Part shown: piece after piece, positions 11,883-56,921 of the stretch
Layout: each line of letters starts with the position of its first letter
How positions within the stretch are numbered: position 1 is the stretch's first letter
Translations under genes and position numbers: made by a program
Notes under the pieces: generated by a model
What the model was told of the DNA's origin: nothing
The model's database searches: none
What the model saw: the letters and a program-made list of their open reading frames with translations, nothing else
Source: Flavobacteriales bacterium
Lineage (GTDB): Bacteria > Bacteroidota > Bacteroidia > Flavobacteriales_F > PHOS-HE28
Direction: 5' to 3'
Length of the DNA: 64,000 nucleotides
NCBI GenBank assembly: GCA_020635715.1
Contig: JACJZG010000008.1
Coordinates: 91,553 to 155,552 of the forward strand

Positions 11883-13289
11883 ATGGCCACCGCCCATCTA
11901 CTCGTGATCGATGACGACCAGGACCTTTGCCTCCTCCTTTCGCGCCTGCTGACCAAGAGCGGGTACGAAGTGGCCACGGCCAACCGCGGGGCTGTGGCGC
12001 GTGACCTCATGAGCCGGAAGCGGTTCGATCTGGTCCTTTGCGATCATCGCCTGCCCGATACCGACGCACCCGCCATGCTGGAGCACATCCGTTCCACCTC
12101 GCCGGGCACACAGGTGATCATCATCACCGGTTATTCGGAGGTGCGGCTCGCGGTCGAGTTGATGCGGAAGGGCGCCTTCGACTACATCGGCAAACCCTTG
12201 TTCCCGGATGAACTGCTGATGCGGGTGCAGGATGCCCTGGCCGTCGATACCGCCCCGGAACCACGCGCCAACGGAAAGGATCGGGGCAAGGGCACCAGGT
12301 CCTCCGGCCCGGCCTATGTGGACGGTACCGGCTCGGCCGCACAGCTCATCGTGAAACACATCGGTCTTGTGGCCCCCACGGACATGTCCGTGCTGATCAC
12401 CGGCGAGACCGGCACCGGAAAAGAGTTCGCGGCGAAACGCATCCATGCGGAAAGCACCCGTTCCGGAGCGCCCTTCGTGTCAGTGGACTGTGGTGCCCTC
12501 CCAAAGGAACTGGCCGGCAGTGAGCTCTTCGGGCATACCAAGGGCTCCTTCACGGGTGCTGTGAGCGACCGCGCGGGCAGCTTTGAACAAGCCGACGGTG
12601 GCACGCTCTTCCTGGATGAGGTGGGCAACCTTTCCTATGAGAACCAGATCAAGTTGCTGCGCGTGCTGCAGGAAAGGAAGTTCAAACGTATCGGCGGCAC
12701 CAAGGACATCGAGGTGGATGTGCGCATCCTGGCCGCCACCAATGAGGATCTGCGCAAGGCGGTGGCCGAAGGCCGTTTCCGCGAGGACCTGCTCCATCGG
12801 ATCCAGGAGTTCACCATCCATCTCCCGCCCTTGCGTGAGCGCCGCGAGGACATCCCACGTTTCGCCGAACACTTCATCGCCCTGGCCAATGAACGGCTCG
12901 GTCGCCAGGTGGAGGGTTTCGATGACGCGGCCTTGAAGCACATACTGGACCACGGATGGAGCGGCAACCTGCGCGAGCTGGGCAATGTGATCAAACGCGC
13001 TGTGCTGCTGAGCACAGGTCCGCGGATCACCCCCGATTGCCTCCCGGCCGTGGTGCTGAGCGGGGCAGCCGTGCCGCGTACCTCCAACACGGTCGAGGCC
13101 AGTGCGCGTTCCCCCCAGGATGCCCAGGGGGCTGAAGGCCTGAAAGGCGTGGCCCACCAGGCGGAACGGGAGGCGATCCTGCAAGCCCTGGAGCGTAACG
13201 GCTACAACAAGTCCCGTACGGCGGAGCAACTGAACATCGATCGGAAGACGCTGTACAACAAGCTGAAGTCCTTCGGTCTGGAGGTCTGA
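11883..13289 (+). CDS. Sigma-54-dependent response regulator (NtrC family bacterial enhancer-binding protein)
   Basis: Receiver domain (VIDDD, LCDHRLPD). AAA+ domain with GETGTGKE, the GSFTGA (GAFTGA-type) loop and LFLDEV. C-terminal Fis-type HTH (RTAEQLNIDRKTLYNKLK). Confidence 0.93.
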   Translation: MATAHLLVIDDDQDLCLLLSRLLTKSGYEVATANRGAVARDLMSRKRFDLVLCDHRLPDTDAPAMLEHIRSTSPGTQVIIITGYSEVRLAVELMRKGAFDYIGKPLFPDELLMRVQDALAVDTAPEPRANGKDRGKGTRSSGPAYVDGTGSAAQLIVKHIGLVAPTDMSVLITGETGTGKEFAAKRIHAESTRSGAPFVSVDCGALPKELAGSELFGHTKGSFTGAVSDRAGSFEQADGGTLFLDEVGNLSYENQIKLLRVLQERKFKRIGGTKDIEVDVRILAATNEDLRKAVAEGRFREDLLHRIQEFTIHLPPLRERREDIPRFAEHFIALANERLGRQVEGFDDAALKHILDHGWSGNLRELGNVIKRAVLLSTGPRITPDCLPAVVLSGAAVPRTSNTVEASARSPQDAQGAEGLKGVAHQAEREAILQALERNGYNKSRTAEQLNIDRKTLYNKLKSFGLEV

Positions 13290-27477: not shown

Positions 27478-27491
27478 TCGTTCATGCTGAG

Positions 27492-27535
27492 CAACGCCGC
27501 GTCATGCATGCATGGCGCGGCGTTGTTCATTTGTT
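27492..27535 (+). terminator. Perfect 10-bp GC-rich hairpin with T-rich tail after the redoxin gene
   Basis: caacgccgcg-(14-nt loop)-cgcggcgttg, followed by ttcatttgtt. Confidence 0.55.
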
Positions 27536-44615: not shown

Positions 44616-44621
44616 GGTCGG

Positions 44622-44629
44622 CGAAAGTA
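44622..44629 (-). promoter_or_regulatory. Candidate -7 box TACTTTCG (minus strand) 6 nt before the ftsX ATG
   Basis: The reverse complement of cgaaagta is TACTTTCG. It overlaps the foot of the 12-bp palindrome at 44627..44654. Confidence 0.3.
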
Positions 44630-44694
44630 AGGGCGATGCACACATCGCCCTTACTTGCGCCGTACCGATAGTCCTCCGTGGCCAGCCCACCTTC

Positions 44695-44721: not shown

Positions 44722-47715
44722 ATGCAGTACGATCACAAGGGCATCGAAGGGAAGTGGCAGGATGAATGGCGCAGACGCGGCACCTACCGCGTGAGCAACG
44801 ATCCATCGAAGCCGAAGTATTACGTGCTGGATATGTTTCCCTATCCCAGCGGGGCAGGCCTGCATGTCGGGCACCCGCTCGGCTACATCGCCAGCGACAT
44901 CGTGGCGCGCTACAAGCGCCTGTGCGGCTTCAACGTGCTGCACCCCATGGGCTACGACAGCTTCGGCCTGCCCGCCGAGCAATACGCCATCCAGACGGGT
45001 CAGCACCCGGCGAAGACCACCGAGGAGAACACCGCGCGCTACCGGCAACAGCTCGACGCCATCGGCTTCAGCTTCGATTGGGAGCGCCAGGTATTCACCA
45101 GCGATCCGTCCTATTACAAGTGGACACAGTGGATCTTCCTGCAGCTCTTCGATAGCTGGTACGATGCCAAGGCCGACAAGGCGAGACCGATCAGCGAACT
45201 GATCGCCTGTTTCGAGAAGGATGGCAGCACGGGCCAGGACACGAGCGTCCTCACCGGCGACATCGAGGAGTTCGTCGGTGGCTTCTCTGCCGATGAGTGG
45301 AACGGCTTCCACGAGGGCACGAAGCAGTTGATCCTCGGCCATTTCCGGCTGGCCTACCGCAGCGAGGCCTGGGTGAACTGGTGTCCTGCCTTGGGCACGG
45401 TGCTCGCCAACGACGAGGTGAAGGACGGCGTGAGCGAACGCGGCGGTCACCCCGTGGAACGCAAGCGGATGCCACAATGGAGCATGCGCATCACCGCCTA
45501 CGCGCAACGGCTGCTCGATGGCTTGGATGCACTGGACTGGAGCGATAGCATCAAAGAAGCACAGCGGAACTGGATCGGTAGGAGTGAAGGGGCGACCGTC
45601 CGTTTCCCACTGGGCGATGACTTCATTGAGGTCTTCACCACACGGCCGGACACGCTCTTCGGTGTCAGCTTCATCACGCTCGCACCGGAGCATGTGCTCG
45701 TGGGCAAGTTCACCACCGCCGACCACAAGGCCGAGGTGATGGCATACGTGGAAAAGGCGAAGAACCGCAGCGAACGCGAGCGCCAGGCCGAGGTGGATAA
45801 GGTGAGCGGCGTGTTCACCGGCAGCTACGCGAAGCATCCGTTCACCGGCGCCGAGGTGCCCGTATGGGTGGGCGATTACGTGCTCGCTGGCTACGGTACT
45901 GGCGCGGTGATGGCCGTGCCCGGCGGCGACCAGCGCGACTGGCGCTTCGCGAAGCACTTCGGCCTGCCCATCATCGCGGTGACCGAGGGTGCTGATGTGG
46001 ATAAGGAGGCCGATGAACGCAAGGACGCGACGATCAGTAGCGAAGGCTTTCTCAAGGGCTTGAAGGTGCCGCAGGCGATCACCCGCGCGATCCAGGAATT
46101 GGAGAAGCTCGGTGCCGGGGAAGGCCGCATCAACTTCCGCCTGCGCGATGCCGCATTCGGCCGCCAACGCTATTGGGGCGAGCCGATCCCGATCTATTAC
46201 AAGGACGAGATACCGTACGCGTTGCCCGAGAGCGAGCTGCCGCTGAAGCTCCCGGAGGTGGACAAGTTCCTGCCGACGGAGGACGGCGAACCACCGCTCG
46301 CGCGTGCCACCAACTGGAACTACCAGGGCCATCCGTTGGAAACGACGACCATGCCCGGTTGGGCCGGCAGCAGCTGGTACTTCCTGCGCTACATGGACCC
46401 GCATAATGCGGAGCGCTTCGCCTCACCCGAGGCCATCAACTATTGGCAGCAGATCGACCTCTACCTGGGCGGCAGCGAGCACGCCACCGGCCACCTGCTC
46501 TACTTCCGCTTCTGGACCAAGTTCCTGCACGACCGCGGCTGGATCCCCTTCGACGAGCCCGCGAAGAAGCTCGTGAACCAAGGGATGATCCAAGGGGTGT
46601 CACGAACAGCATACGTGTACAAGCTCTCCTGGGCAATGATTGCCACAACGGCGGCTTCGTACTCCGGCCCAACCATTCCGTTGAATGCTGCCCCTACGGT
46701 TCTTGTTCCGGAAGAAGTCTATCTCGCGATGAAGGAAGGGACACTGACTGAACAACAAAGTGATCGGCTACATGAGATTGAGAGAGAGGCAACCCGTTTG
46801 GTGAAAGATCAGTTACCTGGTCATGCTGGTAGGTTGTTTGTTCCAGGTGTGGAAGGAGGAGCAGTTGCCTTTCCGATGAATGTGGATATTGACTTGGTTG
46901 ATGAAAAGGGTGTTCTTGATATCGGTAGGTTCAAGTCATGGAGGGCTGAAAATGCGACAACATTGACTTGGGATGACTCGCCTTATGTGTGTGTTCCGTT
47001 TGTCGAGAAGATGTCCAAGTCAAAGTTCAACGTGGTCAACCCCGACGACATCATTTCAAAGTACGGTGCCGACACCCTTCGTCTTTACGAGATGTTCCTG
47101 GGCCCCTTAGAGCAGAGCAAGCCCTGGGACACCAACGGCATCGAGGGCACCTTCCGTTTCCTGCGGAAGTTCTGGAACCTGTTCTTCAGCGGAGACGGTG
47201 TAGCGTCGACCCACGGGGTCGACCTACCCACCGTTACCAATGACCCCCCCACCAAGGCCGAGCTGAAAGTCCTGCACGCCACCCTGAAGAAGGTGAGCGA
47301 GGACATCGAGAAGATGAGCTTCAACACCAGCGTGGCGCAGTTCATGATCGCGGTGAACGAGCTGGGTGCGCTCAAGTGCCACAAGCGCGACATCCTCGAA
47401 CCCATGACCATCGCCCTGGCACCCTTCGCCCCGCACATCGCCGAGGAATTGTGGGAGAAACTGGGTCATGCCGAGAGTATCACCACCGCCGCATGGCCGA
47501 AGTTCGATCCGCAATACCTGGTGGAGGACAACTTCAGCTACCCCATCAGCTTCAACGGAAAGACGCGCCTGCAGCTGGAGTTCCCCATCGCCCTGGGCAA
47601 GGAGGAGGTGGAGGCGGCTGTATTGGCCAACCCAGAGGTACAAGCCAAGCTCGAAGGCAAGGCGCCCAAGAAGGTGATCGTGGTGCCCAAACGCATCGTC
47701 AATATCGTGGTATGA
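44722..47715 (+). CDS. leuS: Leucine-tRNA ligase
   Basis: 997 aa with HIGH-type motif (HVGHPLGY), the CP1 editing region and KMSKS. It has a long insertion just before KMSKS. Confidence 0.97.
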   Translation: MQYDHKGIEGKWQDEWRRRGTYRVSNDPSKPKYYVLDMFPYPSGAGLHVGHPLGYIASDIVARYKRLCGFNVLHPMGYDSFGLPAEQYAIQTGQHPAKTTEENTARYRQQLDAIGFSFDWERQVFTSDPSYYKWTQWIFLQLFDSWYDAKADKARPISELIACFEKDGSTGQDTSVLTGDIEEFVGGFSADEWNGFHEGTKQLILGHFRLAYRSEAWVNWCPALGTVLANDEVKDGVSERGGHPVERKRMPQWSMRITAYAQRLLDGLDALDWSDSIKEAQRNWIGRSEGATVRFPLGDDFIEVFTTRPDTLFGVSFITLAPEHVLVGKFTTADHKAEVMAYVEKAKNRSERERQAEVDKVSGVFTGSYAKHPFTGAEVPVWVGDYVLAGYGTGAVMAVPGGDQRDWRFAKHFGLPIIAVTEGADVDKEADERKDATISSEGFLKGLKVPQAITRAIQELEKLGAGEGRINFRLRDAAFGRQRYWGEPIPIYYKDEIPYALPESELPLKLPEVDKFLPTEDGEPPLARATNWNYQGHPLETTTMPGWAGSSWYFLRYMDPHNAERFASPEAINYWQQIDLYLGGSEHATGHLLYFRFWTKFLHDRGWIPFDEPAKKLVNQGMIQGVSRTAYVYKLSWAMIATTAASYSGPTIPLNAAPTVLVPEEVYLAMKEGTLTEQQSDRLHEIEREATRLVKDQLPGHAGRLFVPGVEGGAVAFPMNVDIDLVDEKGVLDIGRFKSWRAENATTLTWDDSPYVCVPFVEKMSKSKFNVVNPDDIISKYGADTLRLYEMFLGPLEQSKPWDTNGIEGTFRFLRKFWNLFFSGDGVASTHGVDLPTVTNDPPTKAELKVLHATLKKVSEDIEKMSFNTSVAQFMIAVNELGALKCHKRDILEPMTIALAPFAPHIAEELWEKLGHAESITTAAWPKFDPQYLVEDNFSYPISFNGKTRLQLEFPIALGKEEVEAAVLANPEVQAKLEGKAPKKVIVVPKRIVNIVV

Positions 47716-47726
47716 GCGCGCTACTG

Positions 47727-47851
47727 GCTACTGGCTCCTGGCTATTGGCTGGTTCGTGCGCTTCGGCACGTAGGAGCCTGCCTCAAGGCATGGCTGAACT
47801 CCTTTCGCCTTGCGATAAGGGGCCAGTAGCCAATAGCCAGGAGCCAGTAGC
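47727..47851. repeat. 24-bp perfect inverted repeat made of tandem NNNTGGC heptads, with a 77-nt spacer
   Basis: The left arm 47727..47750 (gctactggctcctggctattggct) is the exact reverse complement of the right arm 47828..47851. The left array reads tactggc/tactggc/tcctggc/tattggc. The spacer contains the hairpin cgtgc-gcttcg-gcacg (47755..47770). Confidence 0.9.
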
Positions 47852-47870
47852 AAACAAGCCAGCAGCGCAT

Positions 47871-47886
47871 TGGCACCCCGTTTGCA
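47871..47886 (+). promoter_or_regulatory. Sigma-54 (-24/-12) promoter, TGGCACcccgtTTGCA
   Basis: Matches the TGGCACG-N4-TTGCW consensus at every conserved position except G7, with exact GG-N10-GC spacing. It ends 12 nt before the ATG at 47898. Confidence 0.6.
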
Positions 47887-47897
47887 TTCCCCAGGCC

Positions 47898-48713
47898 ATG
47901 GCACGTTCGACCACCTTCCTGCTGGCCGGTCTCGCCCTGTTGACCATGGGCTTCGGCCAGGCCAAGAACCCTGTGGCCACGACCGCCACGGAGTTCAATC
48001 AATTGCGCGACCTGAAGTTCGATTCCTTCAAGCCGGGCGAGAAGCTGACCTATGTGGTGCACTACGGCTGGCTCAATGCCGGTGAAGCGGTGGTGGAGCT
48101 GAAGGAAGGCACCCGCGACATCGCCGGCCGCAAGGTGTGGGTGGCCACCGGCACGGGCCGCAGCCTCGGCGCCTTCAATACCTTCTACAAGGTGGACGAC
48201 CACTACGAGACCCACTTCGATGCGAAGGGCGTCTTCCCCTATGCCTTCATCCGCCGCGTGAGCGAGGGCGGTTACGAGTTCAGCCAGGACTATGTGTACA
48301 ACCAGGTGAAGGGCGAGGTGACCACCCAGAAGAAGGAAACACACAAGGTGCCCGCCAGCGTCCAGGACATGCTCAGCGCCTTCTACTTCGCCCGCACCAT
48401 CGACTTCGCCAATGCGAAGGAGGGCGACATCTTCACCATCGAGACCTTCATGGACGATGAGCTCTGGCCGCTGCGCATGAAGTACATGGGCAAGGAGACC
48501 ATCAAATTGCGCAACGGCAAGTACCGCTGCCTCAAGTTCCAGCCGGTGGTGCAGGAGGGACGCATCTTCAAGGGCAACGACGACCTGAACGTGTGGATCA
48601 CCGACGACGGCAACCGGATCCCGGTGCTGGCGCAGGCCAAAGTGCTTGTGGGTTCGATCAAGATGGAGCTGTCGGACTACGAGGGGCTGAACCATCCGAT
48701 CGCCAAGGAGTGA
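47898..48713 (+). CDS. DUF3108 domain-containing protein (secreted)
   Basis: ORF 47376..48713 trimmed to MARSTTFLLAGLALLTMGFGQA; the extension overlaps leuS. Family-like pattern LTYVVHYGWLNAGEAVVELKE. Confidence 0.8.
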   Translation: MARSTTFLLAGLALLTMGFGQAKNPVATTATEFNQLRDLKFDSFKPGEKLTYVVHYGWLNAGEAVVELKEGTRDIAGRKVWVATGTGRSLGAFNTFYKVDDHYETHFDAKGVFPYAFIRRVSEGGYEFSQDYVYNQVKGEVTTQKKETHKVPASVQDMLSAFYFARTIDFANAKEGDIFTIETFMDDELWPLRMKYMGKETIKLRNGKYRCLKFQPVVQEGRIFKGNDDLNVWITDDGNRIPVLAQAKVLVGSIKMELSDYEGLNHPIAKE

Positions 48714-48806: not shown

Positions 48807-50081
48807 ATGGTCTGGTGGAAGAAAGGGTTGGTGGCGTTGGCCGCAACGGGCGGGGTTGGCTTGTTCTTCTTATCCGTGGACATCAGTCCACATGTGGAGT
48901 ACACCCCGGACCCGGAGCCGGTCGCGGTGGAGGACACGATCCCATCCCCTCCGGATGCCTATGGTATCCCGATGGCCGGCTATGTGCTGGAGCATGGCTC
49001 CATGAAACGCGGTGACACTTTCGGTGGCCTGCTGAACGCACGTGGCGTCGATCAGAACCTCATCCACGGTCTGGTCGAGCTCGCACTGCCGCACTTCGAT
49101 GTTCGTCGGATGCGGCTCGGCCATCCCTATGCCTTCATCTTCGACGAGGAGAACACCCTGAGCCCGGAGTACTTCGTGTACGAGGCCGATGCCGTGCATT
49201 ACGTGGTCTTCCACCTGCATGATAGCGTGGGGGTCACCGTGGGTGAGCGACCCGTGAAGGTGGAGGAAAGGAGCATCGCCTGTTCAGTGACGGGTGCGCT
49301 GTACAACGACCTGGCGAGGGTCGGTGCGGATCCGCAGCTCGCCATGCAACTCGCCGATGTCTTCGCCTGGACCGTGGACTTCTACCGGATCCAGAAGGAT
49401 GACATGTTCTCGGTGGTCTACCAGGAGAAGACCGTTGATGGCGAACCCTACGGGGCGCCGGAGATCGTGGGCGCACGCTACATCAGTGGGGGCACCGTGA
49501 GGGAGGCCTACCTCTTCGCCCAAGGCGATGGCAAGGAGTCCTACTATGACGATGAGGGCCGCAGCATGCGCAAGGCCTTCCTGCAGGCGCCGCTCAAGTT
49601 CAGCCGGATCTCCAGTGGCTTCAGCTCCAGACGCCTGCATCCCGTTCAGAAGGTGATGAAAGCACACCTGGGCACGGACTACGCTGCACCCTATGGCACG
49701 CCGATCCTGGCCGTGGGGGATGGCATCGTGGAGAAGGCGGGCCGTACCGGGGGCAATGGCAACTTCGTGAAGATCCGCCACAACGGCACCTACAGCACCC
49801 AATACCTGCACATGCGCAAGATCCTGGTGAAGCAGGGCCAGGCCGTGCAGCAGGGCCAGGTGATCGGGGAGGTGGGGAGCACCGGTCTGGCCACCGGGCC
49901 GCATGTCTGCTTCCGCTTCTGGAAGAACGGCGTGCAGGTGGACCACCGCCGGGAGGAGTTCCCGAACACGGAACCGCTGGATGCGGAACGCATGCCCGCC
50001 TTCGAGGCTTTCAAGGCGCCGGTGCGCGCTGAGCTCTTCGCCGCCGAGAAGGTGGCCAGGGGCCGGGTGGTGAACTTCTGA
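48807..50081 (+). CDS. M23 family metallopeptidase (peptidoglycan DD-endopeptidase type)
   Basis: N-terminal TM segment. HLGTDYAAP (HxxxD) and GSTGLATGPHVCFRF (HxH-type) motifs. Confidence 0.9.
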   Translation: MVWWKKGLVALAATGGVGLFFLSVDISPHVEYTPDPEPVAVEDTIPSPPDAYGIPMAGYVLEHGSMKRGDTFGGLLNARGVDQNLIHGLVELALPHFDVRRMRLGHPYAFIFDEENTLSPEYFVYEADAVHYVVFHLHDSVGVTVGERPVKVEERSIACSVTGALYNDLARVGADPQLAMQLADVFAWTVDFYRIQKDDMFSVVYQEKTVDGEPYGAPEIVGARYISGGTVREAYLFAQGDGKESYYDDEGRSMRKAFLQAPLKFSRISSGFSSRRLHPVQKVMKAHLGTDYAAPYGTPILAVGDGIVEKAGRTGGNGNFVKIRHNGTYSTQYLHMRKILVKQGQAVQQGQVIGEVGSTGLATGPHVCFRFWKNGVQVDHRREEFPNTEPLDAERMPAFEAFKAPVRAELFAAEKVARGRVVNF

Positions 50082-55431: not shown

Positions 55432-56298
55432 CTACCGGATGTTGCTCAGCTTCTCGCGCAAACTGGACACCAAGGTCTCCTGCCGGCTGATCTCCTCCTT
55501 CTTGCGCTCCTGGCTCTCCGCGTTCTTCCGAAGTTCCTGATCGAGCTCGGCCACCTTCTTGTGCATGTCCGCCTCCTCCTCGTGGGCCCTGCGGTTCCGG
55601 CTCTCCGCCCGGTCCTTGTCGCGGATGAGGCCGCTCAGCTCCTTCGAACCTTCCTTGTCGGGCGCATCGCCGAGCTCGGCCTGCAACCGGGCGATGTTCG
55701 GACCGAGCCGTTCCGCCTCCGCCCGTGTGCTCTCCTGCTCCTGCACCGCTTCCGCCGCCCGCTGTTTGCTCTTCTCCTGGCTCGACTCGGCGCGCTCCTT
55801 GTCCCGCTCCAGATCGGAGAGTTCGTCCTTCAGTTTGCTTAGACCACGCTCCGCCAGGCTCAACTCCTGTTCAGCCAGTTGACGGCGCAAGGCCGTGCTC
55901 TGTTGCTGCACATAGGCCCTCGCCTCCTCGAAGACCTTCGCATCACTGCTCGGTCCCACGAAGCCGTCCACGGTCAGTATCGCGACATGCGCGGTGAGGT
56001 TCGCGCTGTTCTTCCGTTGCTCGGCCTTCACGTAGATCACCAACGTATCGCTCGAGATCCGCGGCACCAGTGCGCCATGTGCGACGAGGTCCTTCTTCGT
56101 GCTCACCCAGGCGCTGATCTTCTTCAGCTCATCACGCCAGTACGCTTCCACGTACTTCGTATCCGTGCCTTCGAAGAGGAAGCTGAAGGTGGGATGTACG
56201 CCGTCGTTGAAGCTGAAGGAGGAGACCTCGGCCGTGGTCTGGGCGTGCAGCAGTCCAGGGAACAGCAGGGGAAGGAGCAGGGCGCGAAGTGGGGTCAT
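55432..56298 (-). CDS. Secreted protein with long C-terminal coiled coil
   Basis: Trimmed to MTPLRALLLPLLFPGLLHAQ. The C-terminal 150 aa are Glu/Lys/Arg-rich with heptad character. Confidence 0.65.
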   Translation of the reverse strand: MTPLRALLLPLLFPGLLHAQTTAEVSSFSFNDGVHPTFSFLFEGTDTKYVEAYWRDELKKISAWVSTKKDLVAHGALVPRISSDTLVIYVKAEQRKNSANLTAHVAILTVDGFVGPSSDAKVFEEARAYVQQQSTALRRQLAEQELSLAERGLSKLKDELSDLERDKERAESSQEKSKQRAAEAVQEQESTRAEAERLGPNIARLQAELGDAPDKEGSKELSGLIRDKDRAESRNRRAHEEEADMHKKVAELDQELRKNAESQERKKEEISRQETLVSSLREKLSNIR

Positions 56299-56339
56299 GG
56301 GTTCGGTTCTATGCAATGGACGTGCCGCAACACGGGCGG

Positions 56340-56921
56340 TCACTCATCATCATCCACCTCGGAAACGCCACCGCTCACCACGAACTTCATCACATCCGCA
56401 GCGCGCGCATCGATCGGGGTCACGTTGATGGCGGGTACGATGTAGAGGTTCCCGCTCCAGTTGAAGGCGTGCGGCAGGTACACGGCCACCTTCGCCCCGC
56501 TGATGCCCAGATGGCTCAGGTCGTTCTGGGTGATGAAGCCCACCCGCTCCACGTCCAAGCCGACCCCCAGGCGCACGAGCACGGGCCGGTCGAACTTGCG
56601 CTTGCTCCCCACCACGGCCTCCACCAGGTCCTTGATCGCTGCGTAGAGCGTCTTGAGGAAGGGGATGCGCTGGAGCAGCTCCTCCCCGAAGTGGGCCAGG
56701 GGTTCGTACAGGAAGGTGGTGCCCAGCCAGCCCACCACCGTGATGATGGCGAGCAGCGTGAGCAGGCCGAGGCCGGGGATGTCCAGCGGGATGATGCCGT
56801 CCAGGAACCGGAGCGACTGCCACAGGGCCCACACGATGATGGTGACCGGCGCGAGCAGCAACAAGCCCCGGAAGAAGAAGCTGAGCAGGATGCGGCCGAT
56901 GCGGCGTGCGGTGTAGCTCAT
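56340..56921 (-). CDS. DUF502 domain-containing membrane protein
   Basis: 193 aa with two N-terminal TM segments and the conserved IP.LK.LY..IKD-like stretch (RIPFLKTLYAAIKDLV). Confidence 0.8.
   Translation of the reverse strand: MSYTARRIGRILLSFFFRGLLLLAPVTIIVWALWQSLRFLDGIIPLDIPGLGLLTLLAIITVVGWLGTTFLYEPLAHFGEELLQRIPFLKTLYAAIKDLVEAVVGSKRKFDRPVLVRLGVGLDVERVGFITQNDLSHLGISGAKVAVYLPHAFNWSGNLYIVPAINVTPIDARAADVMKFVVSGGVSEVDDDE

Follow-up and report, generated by a model that had tools for sequence, protein, structure and literature searches.

A palindromic heptanucleotide repeat in a stop-poor frame between leuS and a sigma-54-type promoter in uncultured Flavobacteriales

Heptanucleotide repeats are the most abundant class of long simple sequence repeats (SSRs) in many bacteria (PMC4692102, PMC4679880), and both of these papers, citing Mrazek 2007, attribute them to polymerase slippage. 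In Xanthomonas the arrays have the same genes on either side in related strains and vary extensively in length and sequence; some heptanucleotide arrays form inverted repeats, and several heptamer arrays are found within some intergenic regions of Bacteroidetes (PMC4692102, PMC4679880). Two other described systems invert short DNA segments: the hairpin-associated small inversions of plastid non-coding DNA, typically 4–50 bp in size (Kelchner & Wendel 1996, as reviewed in PMC12371153), and invertons, which are common in Bacteroidota (PMC11602134, PMC11892184). Here we describe an element that shares features with each of these, located in a 64,000-nt stretch of a Flavobacteriales bacterium (contig JACJZG010000008.1, positions 91,553 to 155,552; hereafter "the window"). 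The element is a palindrome built of tandem heptads, lying between leuS, which encodes leucyl-tRNA synthetase (LeuRS), and the sigma-54-type promoter of a gene for a DUF3108 protein that is followed by a gene for an M23 peptidase. With moderate confidence, we regard it as an SSR hairpin between leuS and the sigma-54-driven DUF3108-M23 pair: a palindromic microsatellite of heptanucleotide units, specific to the locus and quick to evolve, which ribosomes coupled to leuS would be able to cross.

Just past the leuS stop codon (TGA, 47713–47715), the plus strand carries 4.4 tandem copies of the heptad NNTGGCT (left arm, 47720–47750; period 7 with 87% matches in Tandem Repeats Finder, TRF), and 4.3 copies of AGCCANN, also found by TRF, form the reverse complement of the left arm at 47822–47851 (right arm). 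These copy numbers compare with the minimum of three to four tandem 7-nt copies in non-coding DNA by which heptanucleotide SSRs are recognised, and the arm sequence had no match in 100 dinucleotide shuffles of the window. The original prediction, made by a model from the letters of the window, had placed the units tactggc/tactggc/tcctggc/tattggc at 47722–47749 and gccagta/gccaata/gccagga/gccagta at 47822–47849, and all of these coordinates proved correct, as did the 24-nt perfect stem, in which 47727–47750 is complementary to 47828–47851 at 24 of 24 positions with 77 nt between. A longer, imperfect version of the arms reaches 30 nt at 87% complementarity, and an outer closing segment (AGCCAGCAGCGC, 47857–47868, plus strand) pairs with 47718–47729 (12 nt at 92%), stretching the palindrome from just past the leuS stop to just before the -24 box at 47871. 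The ends of the element, AATGCGCTGCTGGC...GCCAGCAGCGCATT, are also present in orthologues. In the minimum free energy (MFE) fold, the 77-nt core (47751–47827) forms three hairpins (47755–47770, 47775–47795 and 47799–47822), which make the element a four-way junction. The GC hairpin predicted at 47755–47770 is therefore present as one of three and not as the only one, and its proposed UUCG-type loop is a GCUUCG hexaloop on a 5-bp stem; orthologues do not keep the loop as UUCG, having CGGAGC or CGAAGC, in the other orientation. As RNA, the segment 47714–47872 folds at −93.8 kcal/mol versus −61.3 ± 3.9 kcal/mol for shuffled sequences (z −8.4), and the opposite strand folds about equally well.

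The element belongs to a known, poorly understood class, the intergenic heptanucleotide SSRs, here arranged as a palindrome. The earlier statement that it fitted no known element class was too strong, as published work already covers tandem heptanucleotide arrays, some of them in inverted arrangement (PMC4692102, PMC4679880). Like the cyanobacterial short tandemly repeated repetitive (STRR) sequences, the Xanthomonas GGGAATC repeats, and the Beggiatoaceae TAACTGA repeats, it consists of tandem 7-nt units in non-coding DNA at gene ends, and shares with them the occupation of the same junction in relatives, the extensive variation in length and sequence, and the occasional inverted pairs that can form stem-loops. 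In contrast to these repeats, it forms no genome-wide family in the available sequence and is concentrated at one junction across a clade; it is one large palindrome around a conserved three-hairpin core, and it is embedded in a stop-free frame. No second copy of the arm or of the heptad palindrome was found anywhere in the 64-kb window, and the core was absent outside the orthologous site in 1.29 Mb of fetched loci, complete genomes not having been searched. In 405 kb of related loci there are 23 period-7 arrays, versus 0–9 for each of the periods 5, 6, 8, 9, and 10; nearly all of the 23 fall in the leuS-DUF3108 junction, and no other heptad palindromes were found in the flanks of the related loci.

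Arrays of the same unit are widespread outside the clade. With one genome taken per species, a search for four TGGCT heptads in phase gave at least 120 loci, short of a complete census, and among the matches listed the hosts include Actinomycetota, Planctomycetota, Acidobacteriota, Gemmatimonadota, Bacteroidota, Cyanobacteria, Pseudomonadota, and others. Most of the listed arrays are intergenic, several directly after a stop codon (printed contexts, read by eye); they often adjoin other heptad arrays, and 13 of 120 have an inverted partner within 300 nt. Heptad arms around a GC-rich core or a short loop were seen at loci L084 (Pirellulales), L093 (Acidobacteriota), L076 and L102 (Thermoanaerobaculia), and L134 (Gemmatimonadales), with the design of arms around a core as in the window at L084, L093, L076, and L134; differing heptad units stand side by side at L095, L148, L146, and L135. 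A blastn search of the element against plasmids and phages returned no phage match and only an unrelated heptad array on a Klebsiella pneumoniae plasmid (NZ_CP110637.1, ~73573–73617), where a 46-nt match to the heptad arm recurs at 12 places in the record. In viral contigs, the core motif CCCCTTATCGCNNNGCGAA gave seven matches, about the estimated chance count, comprising five near-identical copies of one unrelated arm-less stretch and two single unrelated sites. Heptanucleotide repeats being the commonest long bacterial microsatellites, the leuS-DUF3108 junction offers a tractable case in which to study what role, if any, they have.

Comparison of the window with about 50 distinct related lineages, down to ~58% DUF3108 identity, showed that leuS-DUF3108-M23 synteny is retained in every related locus fetched; the clade with the junction element consists of high-GC uncultured Flavobacteriales. 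At this junction heptad unit sequence and copy number vary between close relatives, and the arm units differ between lineages, being TGGCTNN (the window's type), GTTGCGN, AGCCACG, AGCTNCA, or absent. Despite this complete sequence turnover, an inverted repeat above the shuffled 95th percentile is present in 29 of the 38 lineages with long junctions. In nine lineages only 18–42 nt separate the leuS stop from the -24 box, with no inverted repeat and with the promoter kept. Eleven TGGCT-type sequences were aligned once the orientation of the core had been made uniform (see below), and the four-helix structure derived from the window has 81% of its cells paired, versus 28–46% with the partners slid, although the count is biased in favour of the structure by its origin in the window's own MFE fold. 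That fold was used because the consensus that RNAalifold drew from the raw alignment was shifted in register and poorly supported, the heptads being able to pair in several registers. Eleven pairs show changes on both sides, and these comparisons support a conserved four-helix fold in the TGGCT-type element, although a palindrome can also stay paired through template switching alone. Searches of Rfam gave no match across the whole window at gathering thresholds, and chance-level matches only (E 1.3 and 5.2) in a permissive search of 47600–48000. The suggestion that the element is a structured RNA or terminator at the leuS 3′ end is partly borne out, by the recurrence of the palindrome and by the compensatory changes in the TGGCT type, and not by a U-tract terminator or a known RNA family.

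The promoter is the most constant feature of the junction. An exact match to the sigma-54 consensus, TGGCAC-N5-TTGCA (47871–47886, plus strand), lies 19 nt past the right arm, and GG[CT]A[CT]-N5-TTGC is found at a fixed 26 nt 5′ of the DUF3108 ATG in all 48 scorable loci (2 of 50 could not be scored), one example being L016 1503–1531, with the GG-N10-GC core of the box at the same fixed 26 nt. Two of the 48 scored boxes are not intact, that of L001 being broken and that of L018 having TTGT at -12. Conservation across ~50 lineages at a fixed distance from the ATG strongly supports the sigma-54 promoter that had been proposed for the window. The GC of the -12 box is located 12–13 nt before the DUF3108 ATG; at the distance standard for a -24/-12 promoter, the first transcribed base would be the A of the ATG or its 5′ neighbour, giving an mRNA with no leader or almost none, which fits the invariant spacing. 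A sigma-54 promoter paired with an mRNA leader of at most 1 nt is an unusual combination. One lineage (L001/L002/L003/L012) that has no heptad palindrome shows a collapsed -24/-12 box (TTGGCTTTGCA, as if ACCCCGT had been deleted) about 30 nt before the ATG; its junction is still open in frame, with an in-frame ATG 4 codons past the leuS stop. Sigma-54-like motifs are no more frequent across the window than expected by chance, and a second one, with one mismatch (CGGCACGTCCATTGCA, 56312–56327, minus strand), is positioned near the start of the open reading frame (ORF) 55432–56343.

The whole junction of the window is open in the frame of DUF3108. An ATG that overlaps the leuS stop (47712–47714, plus strand, in an ATGA overlap) is a candidate for re-initiation and shares its frame with the DUF3108 ATG 186 nt downstream; the stop-free "bridge" between them (47712–47897, plus strand) has no coding-type composition; ORF 47376–48713 is open across it. 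The junction is open in this frame in 41 of 50 lineages, versus 20 and 18 of 50 in the other two frames, and 42 of 50 have an in-frame ATG, GTG, or TTG between −4 and +12 nt relative to the leuS stop. Divided by 3, the junction length leaves a remainder of 2 in 36 lineages, of 0 in 11, and of 1 in 3. Stop triplets counted in the junction body, with the promoter excluded, number 12/52/66 in frames 0 (that of DUF3108), 1, and 2 of the plus strand over all lineages, an approximately five-fold depletion in frame 0, compared with 42/45/34 in the minus-strand control. The depletion is seen in each of four cassette classes, with counts of 1/17/22 for TGGCT junctions with a core, 5/13/12 for the GTTGCG type, 1/8/9 for the AGCCACG and AGCTNCA types, and 2/8/6 for short junctions; three other TGGCT-armed junctions without the core show none (3/5/4). 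The right arm in the window contains three TAG triplets (47827, 47834, and 47848), none of them in frame; the heptad that would bring TAG into frame reads GAG (47841–47843), which is the "odd" tcctggc/gccagga unit.

The content of this open frame does not resemble that of a gene. GC content at the three codon positions is flat in the junction (.64/.61/.62) versus.57/.38/.82 in DUF3108 and.61/.35/.81 in leuS, and the implied junction peptides are unrelated between cassettes, suggesting that the junction is something other than ordinary coding sequence. Selection appears to act only against stops in the frame that leads into DUF3108, and not on the peptide sequence. The simplest reading of this pattern would be termination-reinitiation coupling from leuS on read-through transcripts, which would also explain why gene callers give either ~272 or ~330 residues for the DUF3108 protein. 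The arrangement is similar to that of translationally coupled overlapping genes (ATGA or TGATG) in that 42 of 50 lineages have a start that overlaps, or lies right next to, the stop of the upstream gene, and the downstream frame is open. It differs in that the coupled start is 44–240 nt upstream of the conserved downstream start, the intervening "codons" are without coding composition, and the downstream gene has, in addition, a sigma-54 promoter of its own. Two other candidates were rejected for the arrays: a leader peptide rich in Leu and tied to leuS, as the implied peptide is Leu-rich only in the TGGCT-type cassette, and HutP-like UAG-N4 repeats, which are not general across the arrays.

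These observations suggest how an SSR hairpin that coupled ribosomes can cross might work. Its arms would lengthen and shorten through replication slippage of 7-nt units, and in a leuS read-through transcript the element would fold into a stem-loop of about −90 kcal/mol that may limit or terminate read-through, or protect the leuS 3′ end, so insulating the sigma-54 promoter. Ribosomes re-initiating at the ATGA/TGATG overlap would melt the stem-loop and run in frame into DUF3108; since coupled ribosomes would enter DUF3108 in frame, selection would act against stops in that frame only and not on the peptide. The stem-loop in leuS transcripts would then be a non-canonical 3′ barrier or insulator. 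The locus thus offers a clade-wide heptad palindrome with total sequence turnover, core flips, and alternative cassettes among near-identical strains, and yet with one frame kept stop-poor. The core inversion, the cassette polymorphism, and the stop-free in-frame bridge all go beyond the original prediction.

Several points weigh against this account. Nine of 50 lineages have an in-frame stop and nine lack the palindrome, so neither feature is essential. When the first 6 nt of each junction are skipped, 12 of 116 stops in the by-class count fall in frame 0 (binomial p 8e-9 under independence), a value that is optimistic because the lineages are phylogenetically related. Complementarity of the arms could persist by template switching alone, without selection, and the signal for concerted evolution of the two arms is weak (score 16.9 within genomes versus 15.3 between genomes). 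No U-tract follows the stem, the hairpin being succeeded by AAACAAGCC, and no terminator-like site was found in 47300–48300; canonical terminators are not enriched anywhere in this genome, and a terminator role would consequently be non-canonical. What is proposed here for the RNA, for termination, and for the coupling is an inference from nucleotide sequence.

A more far-reaching version, which we put forward only tentatively and consider doubtful, is that the junction is a sequence-free translational bridge giving DUF3108-M23 two expression routes, one by the leaderless sigma-54 mRNA and the other by leuS read-through with reinitiation. The arbitrary N-terminal extension of the read-through pre-protein would be discarded along with the signal peptide, and selection would act on frame and pairing only, freeing the DNA to expand, to swap cassettes, and to flip its core; the hairpin might serve as a tunable gate between housekeeping and sigma-54-controlled expression. 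If the coupling model is true, selection on this structured, non-coding-looking spacer would be for "frame and fold" and nothing else, and in Bacteroidota a leaderless mRNA could be driven by a sigma-54 promoter.

The alternative that best survives the comparison is that the palindrome is a neutral by-product, a selfish or accidental slippage-prone SSR without function, and that only the frame of the junction is selected, via translational coupling of leuS and DUF3108. The arms turn over freely in sequence and in length, as do whole cassettes, the nine lineages without an inverted repeat retain the promoter and the genes, and heptad SSRs, attributed to polymerase slippage, are widespread in the non-coding DNA of many phyla, all of which would be expected of such a by-product. 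A functionless repeat accounts less readily for the above-chance palindromes in most long junctions or for the concentration of arrays at one junction without spread over neighbouring intergenic regions. The three-hairpin core is moreover ~81% conserved, like the flanking coding DNA (78–79%), with compensatory changes, and we judge neutrality of the whole palindrome to be possible, though on balance unlikely.

Several gene callers start DUF3108 at the ATG overlapping the leuS stop (330–335 residues), and 24 of 120 homologue clusters listed are called at 300–335 residues, raising the alternative of a genuine N-terminal extension with the palindrome inside the coding sequence. The open frame, the five-fold depletion of stops, and the start codons at the leuS stop are as this alternative would have them. 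However, the codon-position GC signature of the flanking genes is missing, the cassettes imply unrelated peptides, and in 50 of 50 lineages the internal ATG is followed by signal-peptide-like sequence; the -24/-12 box, mostly intact, keeps its fixed distance from that internal ATG in all scorable loci. We therefore consider a genuine extension improbable, and return to an SSR hairpin within a coupled, non-coding-type bridge. The split of gene calls between ~272 and ~330 residues is a caution for gene callers, as the site is for inverton finders, which would probably flag it.

The 77-nt core is itself found in both orientations. It is reverse-complemented, relative to the window, in 12 lineages (orientation B: L006, L004/L013, L010, L018, L020, L021, L047, L194, L206, L207, and L209), and only the window and L015 have orientation A. 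The change can be followed by a motif that is CCCCTTATCGC at the left in orientation B and GCGATAAGGGG at the right in the window, and by blastn, in which L006 3014–3142 aligns in reverse to window 47846–47718 at 81% identity. The window and L015 are sisters neither on the DUF3108 tree nor on the leuS 3′-end tree, so that at least two inversions, or transfers, are needed. Like plastid small inversions, the segment between complementary arms is reverse-complemented in some lineages, and the change is homoplasious on the tree and needs no dedicated recombinase; unlike them, it is in a bacterial genome and the flipped segment is 77 nt long and itself structured.

A programmed inverton would instead use the arms as recombinase sites and flip the core reversibly within populations, switching DUF3108-M23 as in phase variation. 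The inverted repeats around a two-orientation segment just 5′ of an exported-protein gene, in a phylum where invertons are common, are what such a system would present. However, Pfam searches of the neighbours (40.7 to 59 kb) found no recombinase domain within ~7 kb, the neighbouring genes being housekeeping only (TruB, BacA/UppP, FtsX, GcpE, EamA, a cyclase, and radical SAM). No sigma-54-like or Bacteroidetes-type promoter motif was found when the core was read by eye, and the sigma-54 promoter is outside the invertible segment. The two orientations have been seen only between lineages; exact-protein look-ups with the 271- and 333-residue forms found no same-strain contig on record for comparison. 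A 77-nt spacer is also short for enzyme-mediated inversion. We regard an inverton as distinctly improbable, and the behaviour of the core appears to fit plastid hairpin-associated small inversions better than enzyme-driven invertons. For the SSR hairpin, this would mean that the core is flipped by recombination or template switching between the complementary arms, as in plastids.

Not only the core but the entire junction differs between some close relatives. TGGCT-type and GTTGCG-type junctions face each other in four sister pairs (window/L008, L015/L016, L018/L019, and L004-L013/L014). The closest relative of the window (L008/L009) has 98% protein and 90% DNA identity to it in DUF3108-M23, and has no alignment at all to window 47712–47895, the two junctions being unrelated. 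Downstream of the -24 box, L015 and L016 share 99.8% identity over more than 900 nt, whereas their leuS genes are ~66–98% identical per 50-nt window and their junctions unalignable. The junction is thus exchanged whole, the breakpoints falling at the leuS stop and the -24 box. With near-identical DUF3108-M23 joined to diverged leuS and to different junctions, a recombination breakpoint coincides with the palindrome, and the exchange is most likely due to homologous recombination with diverged donors; a mobile cassette as its cause has very little likelihood.

REP/BIME-type palindromes (repetitive extragenic palindromic sequences and bacterial interspersed mosaic elements) act as 3′ mRNA stabilisers or terminators, and the junction element could likewise protect the upstream mRNA or stop read-through. 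It resembles them as a GC-rich extragenic palindrome directly after a stop codon, and differs in being single copy in the available sequence, much longer, made of tandem heptads, and without a conserved family sequence. The earlier proposal of a repeat like REP or a MITE (a miniature transposable element with inverted repeats) would now take the form of two small mobile palindrome families, the TGGCT- and GTTGCG-type cassettes, inserting at this site. In its favour are the replacement of the entire cassette, whose breakpoints fall on the leuS stop and the -24 box, between relatives that are nearly identical, and the recurrence of the same two types in four sister pairs. However, the element is single copy in the window with no extra copies in the 1.29 Mb of loci (again with complete genomes unsearched), and no target-site duplication or conserved termini were seen apart from the palindrome, whose ends abut the leuS stop and the -24 box; the diverged leuS of L015/L016 is what homologous recombination with a diverged donor would give. 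A REP/MITE-like origin is accordingly very improbable, and exchange by homologous recombination is readily accommodated by a locus-specific SSR hairpin.

The remaining proposal, that the arms are paired upstream activating sequences (UAS) through which an NtrC-type bacterial enhancer-binding protein drives the sigma-54 promoter, has hardly any chance of being correct: the arm centres lie ~58 and ~162 nt upstream of the predicted start (rated compatible with the roughly 80–150 bp expected of such sites), an enhancer-binding protein of NtrC type is encoded at 11883–13289 of the same 64-kb window (Pfam), and the heptad TGGC resembles the -24 box, but an activator site is expected to be conserved with its promoter and the arms are not, being unrelated among lineages that keep the promoter, absent from the 18–42-nt junctions, and replaced by a different cassette in the closest relative at 98% protein identity. 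A function of the arms as an enhancer site for an NtrC-type activator is thus not supported by the comparison of junctions. The heptads were also considered as decoys of the sigma-54 -24/-12 elements, given TGGC and TTGC in two cassette types, and this candidate was rejected because the spacing is wrong and other cassettes are without them.

The genes on either side of the repeat were confirmed by Pfam as originally named. On the plus strand, leuS (44722–47715, 997 residues) has the tRNA-synt_1, LeuRS editing, and Anticodon_1 domains, DUF3108 (47898–48713, 271 residues) matches PF11306 (E 1.5e-50), and 3′ of it a Csd3-like M23 peptidase (48807–50081) has Peptidase_M23 and Csd3_N2; the latter two genes are presumably in one operon. 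The N-terminus of the DUF3108 protein (MARSTTFLLAGLALLTMGFGQA), read by eye, is signal-peptide-like. The protein has 1819 homologues, the named ones being from metagenome-assembled genomes of Flavobacteriales or Bacteroidetes. Two other strong palindromes in the window contain no heptads, one in the ftsX/leuS gap (44619–44662, a 20-nt stem with a 4-nt loop) and one that overlaps a gene start at 27512 (27488–27529, 21-nt arms at 90% complementarity, no loop). Within leuS, a segment of ~400 nt (46601–47002) has a GC content of 0.46–0.48 versus ~0.6 and is unalignable to relatives, several of which have a leuS product of 1119–1138 residues with DUF559/MTES_1575 endonuclease-like domains (L001 and L006); the segment looks like a variable insertion point within LeuRS.

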